Assembly: GCA_024137785.1 (NCBI GenBank)
Contig: JAHRHZ010000062.1
Span: forward strand, 21,132,771-21,196,770
DNA: 64,000 bases
Reading direction: 5' to 3'
From: Ginglymostoma cirratum
Taxonomy: Eukaryota
A program made the translations under genes and the position numbers. Every line of letters starts with the position of its first letter. The stretch's first letter is position 1. This document shows, piece after piece, positions 4,660 through 56,417 of this stretch. A model generated the notes under the pieces. That model did not search any database and was not told the DNA's origin. It saw only the letters and a program-made list of their open reading frames with translations.

Positions 4660-5200
4660 ATACCAACCACATACCTGCACCATTACTAAGGCCATTTTGT
4701 TCCACCTCTGTAACTTCAGTTGCTTCTGCCCCTTGCTCCTGGAATCCTGATTCATTCCTTTCTTACATATAGTGTCAACTTATCCAAAGCAATAATACAA
4801 AACAAAGATAAAACAACGAACTGTAGATACTGGAGATCTGAAACAAAGACAGAGAGTGCTAGAGAAACTCAGCAGGTATGACAACACCAGTGGAAAGTAA
4901 AAAAACAGAGTTAATATTTTGAGGCCAGTGGCCCTTCCTTAGAACTATTCCAAAGTAATCCTACTTGGTCTCTTGCATTCAATCCTCTATAACATATGAC
5001 CATCAAAAGCCACTTTTGCTCATTTCCTTACCTGCACCAAACCCCATTCAACTCATTGCATCTGCTCACTAACCTAGGTTGTACCTCTATTTTAATACTA
5101 CACCCTTGTTTTCAAATCCCTTCATGGCCTCATCTCTGCCTATCCCTGTAACCACTCTTGCCGTGGAATCCTCTTTAATCCTTCAATGTGTCAATTCTTG
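4660..5200 (+). mobile_element. Degenerate L2 LINE 3' fragment (hosts a hammerhead element)
   Basis: Decayed RLDYSN / HITP / LILVFKSLHGL-type coding sequence (CTTGTTTTCAAATCCCTTCATGGCCTC), similar to 16790-17150. Confidence 0.6.
4794..4948 (-). mobile_element. Short hammerhead-motif element, subfamily B (decayed)
   Basis: Reverse strand GTTCTAAGGAAGGGCCACTGGCCTCAAAATATTAACTCTG; flanked by TCCAAAGCAAT (4783-4793) and TCCAAAGTAAT (4949-4959). Confidence 0.7.
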
Positions 5201-9559: not shown

Positions 9560-9735
9560 AAACCAAATAAGACCAAGGTCCAGAAAATATTCAACAAGTC
9601 AGTTAGCAGCGTGAAACAGAGTTAACGTCTCAGATGAAACAGAACTTTATTTGTTTCCACAGATACTGTTTGACCTGTGGCAAAGTTTTAGTGTTTTCCA
9701 TTTTTATTTCAGATTTCCATCATCTGCAGTTTTGG
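9560..9735. mobile_element. Decayed inverted pair of subfamily-B hammerhead-element arms
   Basis: Reverse arm ...GAAACAGAGTTAACGTCTCAG is followed by forward arm CCACAGATACTGTTTGACCTG...ATTTCAGATTTCCATCATCTGCAG. Confidence 0.55.
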
Positions 9736-9846: not shown

Positions 9847-10320
9847 GGAGGAAGTGATGGCCTAGCAGTATTGTCGCACGATTAATAATCCAGAAAACCA
9901 GGTAATGTTCTGGGCTGTTCTGAGGAAGGGTTACCGGACCTGAAACGTTAATTCTGATTTCTCTTCACAGATGCTGCCAGACCTGCTGAGCTTTTCCAGC
10001 AATTTTTGTTTTGTTGTCAATGTTCTGGGGGCCTAGGTTTGGCAGATGATGGAATTTGAGTTCAATTAAAATCTAGAATTAAAAATCTAACAATGACTAT
10101 GAAGCCATTGTGACAAAATCCCACCTATTTCACTAATGTCTTTTTAGGACAGGAAATCTGCCATTTTCACCTCTTCTCACCTACATGTGAATCAAGATCC
10201 ATAACAATAAATTTAAATCTTAAAGCCCTCAGAAGCAAGGGCAGTTCAAAGGGAGCATGAGATGGGTGACGAATGTTATCTGTGCTGGCGATGCCTGCAT
10301 TCCATGCAGGAATGAAAAGA
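9847..10320 (+). mobile_element. tRNA-head SINE with a LINE-like 3' tail (interrupted by a hammerhead element)
   Basis: Head GATGGCCTAGCAGTA (A-box-like). The body is shared with 17505-18027, and the tail GATGCCTGCATTCCATG..AATGAAAA resembles the LINE end at about 10800. Confidence 0.65.
9915..10018 (+). mobile_element. Short hammerhead-motif element, subfamily B; best-preserved core, 11-bp TSD
   Basis: GTT-CTGAGGA(9920)-A-GGGT-TACCGG-ACCT-GAAA-CGTT-AAT; the perfect direct repeat AATGTTCTGGG lies at 9904-9914 and 10019-10029. Confidence 0.85.
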
Positions 10321-25259: not shown

Positions 25260-25530
25260 TAAAAGATCAAATGGTACTATTATGAAAAAGAGTGGAAGTG
25301 CTCTCCTCCAGTGTTCTGGCCAATATTTATTTCTCAGACACCATTGTAAAATAGATTAACTGCTCATTTATTTAATTACTGTTTACGTGACCTTGCTGTG
25401 TTCAAATTAGCAGCTGCATTTTCCATACAGAATTACAACAGTGATTACATTCCAAAAGTACTTTATTGACTGTAAAATACTTTTGGACATTCTGAGGTCA
25501 TGGAAGGCACTACATAAATGCATGAATTTC
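25260..25530 (+). mobile_element. Deu-domain SINE
   Basis: CTGGCCAATATTTAT...CTTGCTGTGTTCAAATTAGCAGCTGCATTTTCC...CAACAGTGATTACATTCCAAAAGTACTT...AAGGCACTACATAAATGCA. Confidence 0.75.
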
Positions 25531-33120: not shown

Positions 33121-33562
33121 ACTGACAGCTAACATAAAGAGGAATCCAGAAGTCTTCTATCAGCACAAAAATAATGAAAGGGTGGTAAGGGGAGAGGTGG
33201 GACCAATTAGTGAGCAATAAGGGGATTTACACTTTAAGTTAGAGGCAAAATAAATACTTTGTATTTGTCTTTAATAAGAAAGAAGATGTAGCCAGAATCA
33301 TTGTGAAAAATGTGTTAGCTGAGAGAATGGACCTGCTGAAATTAAAAGAGGAGCTTTTAGAAAAGCTGGCCATGGTTAAAGTTGATAAACCATTGGATCT
33401 AGGTCAGATGAATTTAAGGACACTCAGAGCAGAAAGGATGGAAATTGTAGAGGTATTGGCCATTGTCTTCAAATCCTGTTAAATCCTGGCACCTGAAAAC
33501 TGGAGAATTGCAAATGTCACTTGATCAAAAAGGGGCGTAAGAAAATCAAGCAGCTACAGATT

Positions 33563-33689
33563 TTCTGAAGAAGGGTCCTGACCTGAAATGTCAACTTTCC
33601 TGCTCCTCTGATGCTGCCTGGACTGCTGTGTTCGTCCAGCTCCACACTGTGTTGTGGCTGATTCTAGCATCTGAGTTTTTGCTAAGTCT
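33563..33689 (+). mobile_element. Short hammerhead-motif element, subfamily A, 12-bp TSD
   Basis: CTGAAGA-A-GGGTC-CT-GACCT-GAAA-TGTC; flanks CAGCTACAGATT (33551-33562) and CAGCCACAGATT (33690-33701). Confidence 0.82.
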
Positions 33690-36460: not shown

Positions 36461-38519
36461 TTTAATTATGTAGCATCTTAAATGTCCCAAATTGTGACAC
36501 TTCCAGCAAATGACTGTGAAATGTAATCATGTTTTTATGTGAGTTAGATAAACTTGATATTTTGTTCACATTAATTGTTCCACAATGTATCAGACTTTGA
36601 TGGTTTTAGGCAGCAGAACAGAGAATATTTATAAGAACAAGATCTAGAATTCCTCCTCTGTCCATTTCTTTCAACGTCAGAAGACAACACTGGTGGGAAA
36701 CCAAAGTGTAAAAAGAACCATTTGTTGAGAACTCAAAGATATCTATCAACTGCGTTGCTGAATCATTAGTTAATCAAGAATGATCTATGGTTAGCCATCT
36801 AATACCTCAAGCATTCTAAAGGCTTTTAACCTGGGTAACTTTTATTCTTCTCGTTGATACTAGACACTATCTCCTTTTTGAAACTTATTGCCTGTTTAGC
36901 AGAAGTATTTGATAGTAGATTTTATTTTTTTTTCCTCAGGGTTCATAGGCAATAAAATTCTCATTGTTTCACCCAAGAAAGCCTTGTGATTGTCTTCTTA
37001 GTTTTGACTTGAACTATGTTCTAATTAAGTGTGAAAGTTGCTTGATAAAAATATATAAAGTATTTGTTGTAACCGCTGGGAGGGAATTAAAAAGAGGTGG
37101 GGCCAATTAGCCTTTCTCCCTGGCCATAGCACATTGAAAATTCATCAAAATTGTTATTGAGATTGTGAACAGCTTCAACCTCAGACTGTTCCCAGGGAGG
37201 GGGATAGAGTTTGTACTGGGGACAAAGACAATGGCTTCAGTCTTGCCAATAGTTTAATGAAAGAAATTTCTGCTTTTCCAGTCAATGGTGTGATAATTTG
37301 GAGACAGCTAGTGGAGGGTTTGAGACAGGTGGTGGTGAGATAAAGGTGGGAGGCATCAGTGTATGTGATGGCAGCATGCAGGTGAGAAAAAGGAGGGAGC
37401 ATAAGTTATATCCGGTTGAGGTAACAGTGTGAGAAGAGAAGCCATTGATCCAAGAATCTGTTGCAGATTAAACAGATTTCCAAAAGCAAGTATGGAGAAT
37501 TGGATGCTTCAAACTTGGGTCTTAGTTGGATGAGTGCTATCAGTGCTCAGTCGTAATGGGGGGGAATTAAAAGGCAAAGGTGAATCCTCTAATCAATGAA
37601 ATTTTAGGCCTTGAATTTGTTCAGTCCTATGCTCCTCTCTAATGGAGGGTATCACACTATGCATTAAGTCTATCTTGATTTAAAAAATCCATTGCTTTCT
37701 GATTTTGTTCATGCAAGTTAATTGAAAACATTGATTGCAAGTGTCAGAATTAAATGACATTCATTTATTATAGATTTGTTACCAAATTAGATATTTAAAA
37801 ATTACATTGTCTGGTCTATTGACCTTAAATGGTCAAATAATTAATCTTTGATTAGATTTTTAATGAAGAAAGACTTCCTTTGATTTTTGGACATCCTTAA
37901 TTGACTTTAGCACTGCAGTTACACTGACTCCTCCTTGAACTTCTGCAGTCTGTTTGGATTAAGTAAACTCACAGTGCTTTAAGGGAGGATAATGATGCTG
38001 CAACTGTCAAAGAACATGCCATTTATTTCCAAGTCAGAATGGTGTGTGACTTCAGGAAAGATTTTCACGGCATCAGGTGAATTCTAGAGCCATATTAAAA
38101 TGGTGGTGTGACCCCATTCAGATAATTTCACCACCGTTTCCAGTGCCATAAATTTTTGCTAACCTGTGATCAGGATCGCAGGAAGTTAACCCATTCCCTG
38201 AATTTCTGACTTGGACATCACCATTGCAGGTTCAGCATCGCAAAGCCCTCTGCAATTTTGGTGGAGTTGGAGCAAGCCTGTCTGTGATTCGTGGCCCATA
38301 ATTGTTCAGAAGAGTCATAAGCCAAAGTCCACCTTTGGGAACTTTTTAAAATGTATATCTTACGGAATTGATCTACCCACACTCTTTCCATGGCCACATG
38401 CTATCAGAATGTCATCTATGTTTCACTTCTGTATTCCCAATTAGCATTGTACTAATTGTTTTTTCTTCTGTGTGGACCTCCAAGTTGTGCCCTTCCTTCT
38501 ATACCTTCCATCTTCATCA

Positions 38520-38684
38520 TCAGAAGTCACATGACACTGAGTTATAGGTTTAAGTGACTTCACCTGATGAGGGAACAGTGCTCCAAAAGCTTGTGATTTT
38601 AATTGAACCTGTTGGGCTATAACCTGGTGTCATGTGACTTCAGACTTTGTCCACCCCAATCCAACACCGACACCTCCACATCAT
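38520..38684 (+). mobile_element. Short hammerhead-motif element, subfamily C, with inverted arms
   Basis: CAC-CTGATGA(38564)-G-GGAAC-AGT-GCTCC-AAAA-GCTT-GTG. GAAGTCACATGACAC/GTGTCATGTGACTTC form an inverted repeat, and there is a degenerate flanking duplication CTTCCATCTTCATCA / CTTCCATTGTCAGCA. Confidence 0.75.
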
Positions 38685-56165: not shown

Positions 56166-56242
56166 GTTCTGAAGTGCTTATTCTGAGAGTAGCACTGAGA
56201 GGAACAGGAATCCAGACACGGCGCGTCTCCATTTCTCTCGTA

Positions 56243-56417
56243 AAAACCGAAAGAATTGCGGATGCCGTAAATCAGGAACAAGAACAGAAGTTTGTTGGAA
56301 AAGCTCAGCAGGTCTAGCAGCATCTATGAGGAAAAATCAGGGTTAACGTCCCGGGTCCGGTCACCCTTCCTCGGAAAAGTTCTGCTGCGCTTTTCCAGCA
56401 ACTTCTGTATTTGTTCA
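56243..56417 (-). mobile_element. Subfamily-B hammerhead element with an inverted arm
   Basis: Reverse core TTCCGAGGA-A-GGGT-GACCGG-ACCC-GGGA-CGTT-AAC; GAACAAGAACAGAAGTTTGTTGGAAAAGC is inverted as GCTTTTCCAGCAACTTCTGTATTTGTTC. Confidence 0.75.

Follow-up and report, generated by a model that had tools for sequence, protein, structure and literature searches.

A 104-bp hammerhead insert in a Ginglymostoma cirratum SINE is an end of a Penelope-like element and belongs to a copy class with a fixed 5' start

The closest described relatives of the insert discussed here are the EN+ Penelope-like elements (PLEs) of the Penelope/Poseidon type. In the parts of the publications covered (PMC8557442, PMC3846280, PMC11167929), these share with the shark element a reverse transcriptase (RT) followed by a C-terminal GIY-YIG domain, a hammerhead in the terminal repeat (pLTR), an optional tail of 30-40 nt, an inverted 5'-adjacent copy, target-site duplications (TSDs) of ~8-15 bp, a pLTR doubling as the leader of the ORF and two internal RT start sites. 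Their published 5' truncation is variable, whereas here ~80% of the ends form one class within a few bases of the ribozyme 5' edge. The anole Poseidon element likewise uses its repeat as a leader, its ORF starting in hammerhead stem II. According to the sections covered of the same paper (PMC11167929), its RT initiates internally at two sites, uncleaved RNA is used by the enzyme in vitro and shorter 5' ends lead to shorter products; the anole hammerhead requires protein for cleavage, and cleavage is dispensable for insertion. In D. virilis, as far as the source was covered, the start is located ~120 nt further upstream and helix I is where an intron ends, a layout different from that of the shark element.

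The minimal type I hammerheads of metazoan PLEs (Cervera and De la Pena 2014, PMC4209133) resemble the shark motif in lacking a helix III loop, in their palindromic positions 15.2-16.2, in the extra base before helix II, in the short helix I and in occurring mostly as single motifs. Such single motifs are widespread and tied to truncated PLEs, and cleavage by a single one was not detected; the parts of that paper covered do not map insertion ends and do not name sharks. Non-LTR retrozymes (PMC7229834; bioRxiv 10.64898/2026.07.22.740005, which includes one chondrichthyan) are also short, non-coding and PLE-related, with a type I hammerhead and TSDs of >4 bp. In the portions covered, however, they form tandem repeats, the RNA being excised between two ribozymes and circularised, whereas the shark copies occur singly or in head-to-head pairs, with ends unrelated to the cut site.

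The structure of the insert agrees throughout with known EN+ PLE insertions (PMC8557442, PMC3846280, as far as covered), and short truncated PLE ends are known. No description of a fixed 5' start of PLE ends was found in the covered parts of PMC11167929, PMC4209133, PMC8557442, PMC6155905, PMC2377424, PMC3846280, PMC7229834 and bioRxiv 10.64898/2026.07.22.740005; figure S2 of PMC11167929 plots genomic copy ends and may show 5' ends. A class-wide fixed start at the ribozyme edge is, modestly, a new and testable variant. As a single insertion, the present copy is unremarkable, being old, dead and of a kind that occurs tens of thousands of times. The population, on the other hand, bears on an open point, namely the template RNA of PLEs and the purpose of their hammerhead.

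The window, i.e., the whole stretch of 64,000 nt that was analysed, contains the following features at this locus (core C3 = 0 for element coordinates):

9847..9914, + strand: 5' part of the host SINE including the left target site, from alignment to 15 uninterrupted copies; start approximate
9904..9914, + strand: left target-site duplication, 11 bp
9915..10018, + strand: 104-bp insert, the tail-less pLTR end/leader of a Penelope-like element, from about -5/-3 to about +95, plus ~3 unmatched bases
9915..9919, + strand: helix I 5' strand, with one change relative to the family; the 5'-junction hot spot of the family
9920..9949, + strand: minimal type I hammerhead, from sequence, motif scan, pairing and the min-HHR definition in the covered part of PMC4209133
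9920..9926, + strand: CUGAGGA, followed by an extra A (9927) and helix II with two G-U pairs (9928..9941)
9942..9945, + strand: GAAA, followed by the palindromic CGUU (9946..9949) without helix III loop; predicted cut after 9949
9950..9959, + strand: helix I 3' strand, with one C-to-T change, and its extension
10019..10029, + strand: right target-site duplication, 11 bp
10019..10320, + strand: remaining host SINE, with a 13-nt deletion right after the site; end approximate, from alignment

The insert is flanked by exact copies of AATGTTCTGGG at 9904-9914 and 10019-10029, the only two exact matches to this 11-mer in the window, and a score as high was reached by 1/1000 random flank pairs. Fifteen other copies of the host SINE, fetched from 1,509 genome-wide exact 21-mer matches and selected for holding that site, each have a single 11-mer and can be aligned straight through the insertion site; hence, the flanks of the insert join into one SINE copy. 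The perfect 11-bp duplication, the length of 104 bp and the interruption of a SINE, as proposed in the original prediction, are thereby confirmed, and the 11-mer was not duplicated beforehand in the host SINE. ARAGORN recognized a tRNA in none of 14 host-SINE loci.

Over positions -3..+85, the insert is identical to the family majority at 84/89 positions. A profile that pooled several families, and that gave way to the sample of 84 copies described below, matched 9915-10015 (E 1.8e-30). The junction pattern has two exact matches genome-wide, this locus and one inverted-arm look-alike, so the insertion at 9915-10018 is unique by exact match and a composite SINE-plus-ribozyme subfamily was rejected. 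Both junctions are present in contigs of two organisms, with flanks ~3-6% different, and the insertion is therefore older than their split. In four public runs, none of the joints displayed corresponded to an empty allele; contigs demonstrate presence, but not absence.

Five further insertions of the same unit were seen at other positions of the same SINE family (L234, L157, L168, L135, L218), one of them ~3 nt from the site used in the window. Read as reverse complement, the helix II-core stretch of the element itself is similar to the target 11-mer, a likeness that is probably due to chance; a decayed inverted arm (L323, 1497-1516) reads the same 11-mer. At 9620-9733, 170 bp upstream of the insertion, there is a fold-back copy of a related unit that is older and decayed.

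A strict scan of the window detected four hammerhead-like motifs, with CGTT intact solely in the copy at 9920-9949. As expected from the original prediction, this copy retains its core (CTGAGGA, GAAA, CGTT) and the insert begins 5 nt ahead of it. The family majority has 12/12 drawn positions paired, with a 5-bp helix II and a helix I formed by -7..-1 against +30..+38. In the window copy, the G-U closing pair of stem II is, contrary to what had been supposed, not the only damage: helix II contains a second G-U, helix I carries one U-U mismatch and one G-U, little of the outer helix I extension is left, and the family shape no longer forms on folding. The core is that of a minimal type I hammerhead, with weakened helices. 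Folding of the 104-bp insert was no better than that of shuffles (z -0.11), and an Rfam scan of the window returned nothing at the insert. This lone, mutated minimal hammerhead is predicted to be inactive. Moreover, self-cleavage did not generate the 5' end of the insert, which lies 35 nt upstream of the cut site.

In its own genome, the insert matches copies that are 92-98% alike, often with an adjoining inverted partner. One of 29 copies (L018) runs upstream into coding sequence. A search with L018 recovered 20 loci with 500-1500 bp of upstream sequence in common and an identical end point; in L018 and 19 further loci, the unit continues upstream into GIY-YIG and RT coding sequence. A 522-aa open frame contains RVT_1 (E 1.6e-7, above the cut-off) followed by GIY-YIG (E 0.0016, below the Pfam cut-off), and the same frame was assigned by Atlas, at 0.97, to RVT_1/HTH_animal/GIY-YIG clusters. 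Of two longer frames submitted to Pfam, one matched RT and GIY-YIG and the other just an unrelated weak family; four broken frames of the element gave no Pfam match. Among the 20 long loci fetched, L253 is complete, with an inverted copy, an upstream repeat with hammerhead and tail, and then the ORF. A single ~140-nt sequence serves both as the 3' end of long copies and, where copies are full-length, as the stretch immediately preceding the ORF, and the long copies have the same two 3' ends as the short ones. The features of an EN+ Penelope-like element are thus present: an ORF with RT and C-terminal GIY-YIG, a pLTR at the 3' end and before the ORF, an optional tail, inverted neighbours and TSDs. 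The insert is the hammerhead-bearing terminal repeat of this ~3-kb element, which is also its ORF leader. From its domain order and motifs, the parent element probably belongs to the Penelope/Poseidon clade.

In the ORF-linked loci L262-L291, an ATG at about +51 of the unit opens a 30-codon frame in 11/16 translations; this frame is in register with the ORF and reaches its stop 9 codons ahead of the likely start of the latter. Both this ATG and the tail follow a pyrimidine tract ending in CAG, resembling a splice acceptor.

To sample the copy population irrespective of upstream sequence, a 40-mer at +43..+82 was used, and the first 90 of its 11,678 exact matches were taken. Six were dropped (three with N across the copy, one second arm of the same insertion, two segmental duplicates), leaving 84. 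TSDs, called at a score >= 8, were found in 33 of the 77 copies for which both ends could be examined, compared to 1% of 600 mismatched flank pairs, an enrichment that the original prediction had anticipated. They are 8-18 bp long (12-14 bp in 19/33), and the first three bases of 29 TSDs show no clear bias towards ATT, the target preference of the anole enzyme. The 3' ends fall into two clusters ~35 nt apart, +92..+105 and +128..+132, and the tail is present in 22/46 non-inverted copies. These ends and the tail resemble those in the covered parts of PMC11167929 and PMC8557442 and are explained by the internal initiation at two sites reported in the former.

The 5' starts are far more uniform than truncation would leave them. 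Among the 46 non-inverted copies, 27 start at -9..-1, four at -16..-11 and four downstream of the core start, while 11 are long and none starts between -17 and -77. Of the copies that reach the core, 31/42 stop within -16..0, whereas the rate of truncation in the region further upstream would predict ~2%. When all arms are counted, 67/122 start just before the core. Genome-wide, 32,264 exact matches to the 17-mer at -2..+14 were counted, of which 3,387 extend to -14. Calibrated on 20 known long copies, 11 of which keep the longer match, ~19% of the ribozyme-bearing ends are long and ~80% belong to the short class, a fraction that other families with the same 17-mer may inflate.

With moderate confidence, the insert is read as a PLE end produced as a short run-off cDNA of the RNA leader by the element's own RT, its start corresponding to a major 5' end of that RNA. 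If the anole enzyme is a guide, GIY-YIG would make staggered nicks 11 nt apart, and RT would begin inside the RNA at about +95, as in the window copy, or at about +132, including the tail. The helix I 5' edge would represent a major 5' end of the template RNA. Either transcription would begin there, at an initiator-like YCA+1NTY, or the end would result from trimming up to the folded ribozyme with its bound protein. A cDNA of ~100 or 140 nt would be obtained when RT primes at the leader copy, and the less frequent long inserts, truncated at random, when it primes at the 3' copy. Self-cleavage would have no part in making short copies, and the window copy would be a dead end.

The initiator consensus is YCA+1NTY. 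Both families compared have an initiator-like match whose A falls at -4, and it coincides with the helix I edge, so the sequence cannot tell them apart. A G precedes the A at -4 at 1.5-1.8 times the background (1,171 vs. 2,206), a weak cap signature. A cap-derived G at the 5' junction is not supported: a single untemplated G occurred in none of 30 such loci, 17 of which are inverted-arm junctions. The second family, that of the copy at 33563 in the window, has other upstream sequence and the same start in ~20/34 motif matches, as read by eye at loci partly picked for PLE ORFs. In two copies (L149, L183), PLE body sequence is joined straight to the 5' start point, as would fit a template jump at the RNA end. 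Thirty ORF-linked copies were picked through the ORF N-terminus. In 17 of them the core is retained on the same strand as the ORF; the leaders of these 17 start at -10..-3 in six cases and at -20 in one, and run past -39 in ten. The 5' start point is thus a frequent end on ORF-bearing templates as well, but longer templates are common, and the helix I edge is not the sole RNA start.

The strongest competitor, even if unlikely, is that the template RNA is longer and that RT stops at the helix I 5' edge, or that the cDNA folds back there by pairing with the cDNA of the other helix I strand. The longer templates behind ten of the 17 ORF-linked leaders would suit this explanation, as would the head-to-head arrangement of 38/84 copies, many of whose junctions use microhomology from the self-complementarity of helix I (e.g., L292, L309, L213); moreover, self-priming has been proposed for PLE palindromes in the covered part of PMC3846280. 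Helix I would, however, already be unwound once RT reaches its 5' strand, and single-arm copies whose TSD abuts the -7..-2 junction show no such fold-back. Furthermore, exactly one arm carries the tail in 27/34 scorable head-to-head pairs (p 4e-4), a pattern that suggests two cDNAs and not a single fold-back. Both arms belong to the same subfamily in 22/25 typed pairs. The one-tail pairs look as if two RT sites had primed both target strands from +95 and +132. Together with the fixed 5' start, such pairs of one tailed and one tail-less arm provide in vivo footprints matching the internal initiation on uncleaved RNA seen in vitro. The one-tail pattern was noted in the head-to-head copies of L131-L226 and at 56240-56417 of the window. 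In L159 and L204, 30-55 nt of unrelated sequence separate the head-to-head arms.

It is still less likely that the unit is an independent non-autonomous element, retrozyme- or SINE-like, whose own short RNA is moved in trans by PLE protein. Short copies with fixed ends outnumber the ORF N-termini ~100 to 1 (the 32,264 matches above vs. 343 exact 17-mers), and non-autonomous PLE derivatives are known from the covered parts of PMC8557442 and bioRxiv 10.64898/2026.07.22.740005. Both subfamily variants are, however, found in short and long copies alike. A second same-strand copy occurs in 5/84 loci, always 147-465 bp away, and abutting tandem arrays in none of the 84; only 2/122 arms start at the cut site (+29..+31). 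No shared 5' flanks were found among 35 short non-inverted copies, a comparison of low power. On the counts for tandem units and cut-site boundaries, an identification as non-LTR retrozyme was rejected. What holds of the proposal that a ~100-170 bp ribozyme unit was mobilised by itself is true retrotransposition with original ends, in place of eroded debris, and the dominance of a discrete ~100/140-nt class; the separateness of this unit from the long element does not, the unit being the terminal repeat and leader of that element. Nor is movement of a short ribozyme RNA by itself supported, the 5' end lying 35 nt upstream of the cut. A further scheme appears similarly doubtful, in which the RNA would start at the first ribozyme base from a promoter inside the ~100-140-nt unit, solo copies would be transcribed and re-copied in trans as a cleavage-free mini-retroposon, and a dimeric RT would prime both strands from +95/+132 of one RNA. 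Solo repeats left by recombination between direct pLTRs, or by plain erosion of long copies, are very improbable and already largely refuted: recombination, too, would result in a single repeat enclosed by a TSD, and it has been suggested for TSD-less solo pLTRs in a rotifer (in the part of the source covered), but full-length copies make up ~1% of the ends, their upstream repeats start widely spread in comparison with the sharp solo peak, head-to-head doublets cannot arise in this way, and erosion would not leave TSDs at the junctions.

The degenerate duplications that had been proposed around the other hammerhead copies of the window are present and weaker than at the insert. The copy at 4794 is flanked at 4783/4949 with a 10/11 match and that at 38520 at 38501/38683, also with 10/11, scores reached by 4.9% of random pairs in each case; for the copy at 33563, flanked at 33551/33690 with 11/12, the value is 1.6%. 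The copies at 33563 and 38520 belong to other families than the insert. These two further hammerhead-bearing families are represented in the window by 33563-33689 and 786-916, and by 38512-38682, respectively. A weak match to Rfam Hammerhead_HH10 lies on the minus strand at 25411-25529; its 28 bits (E 0.19) fall far short of the gathering score. The 33563 type likewise starts just before its own core.
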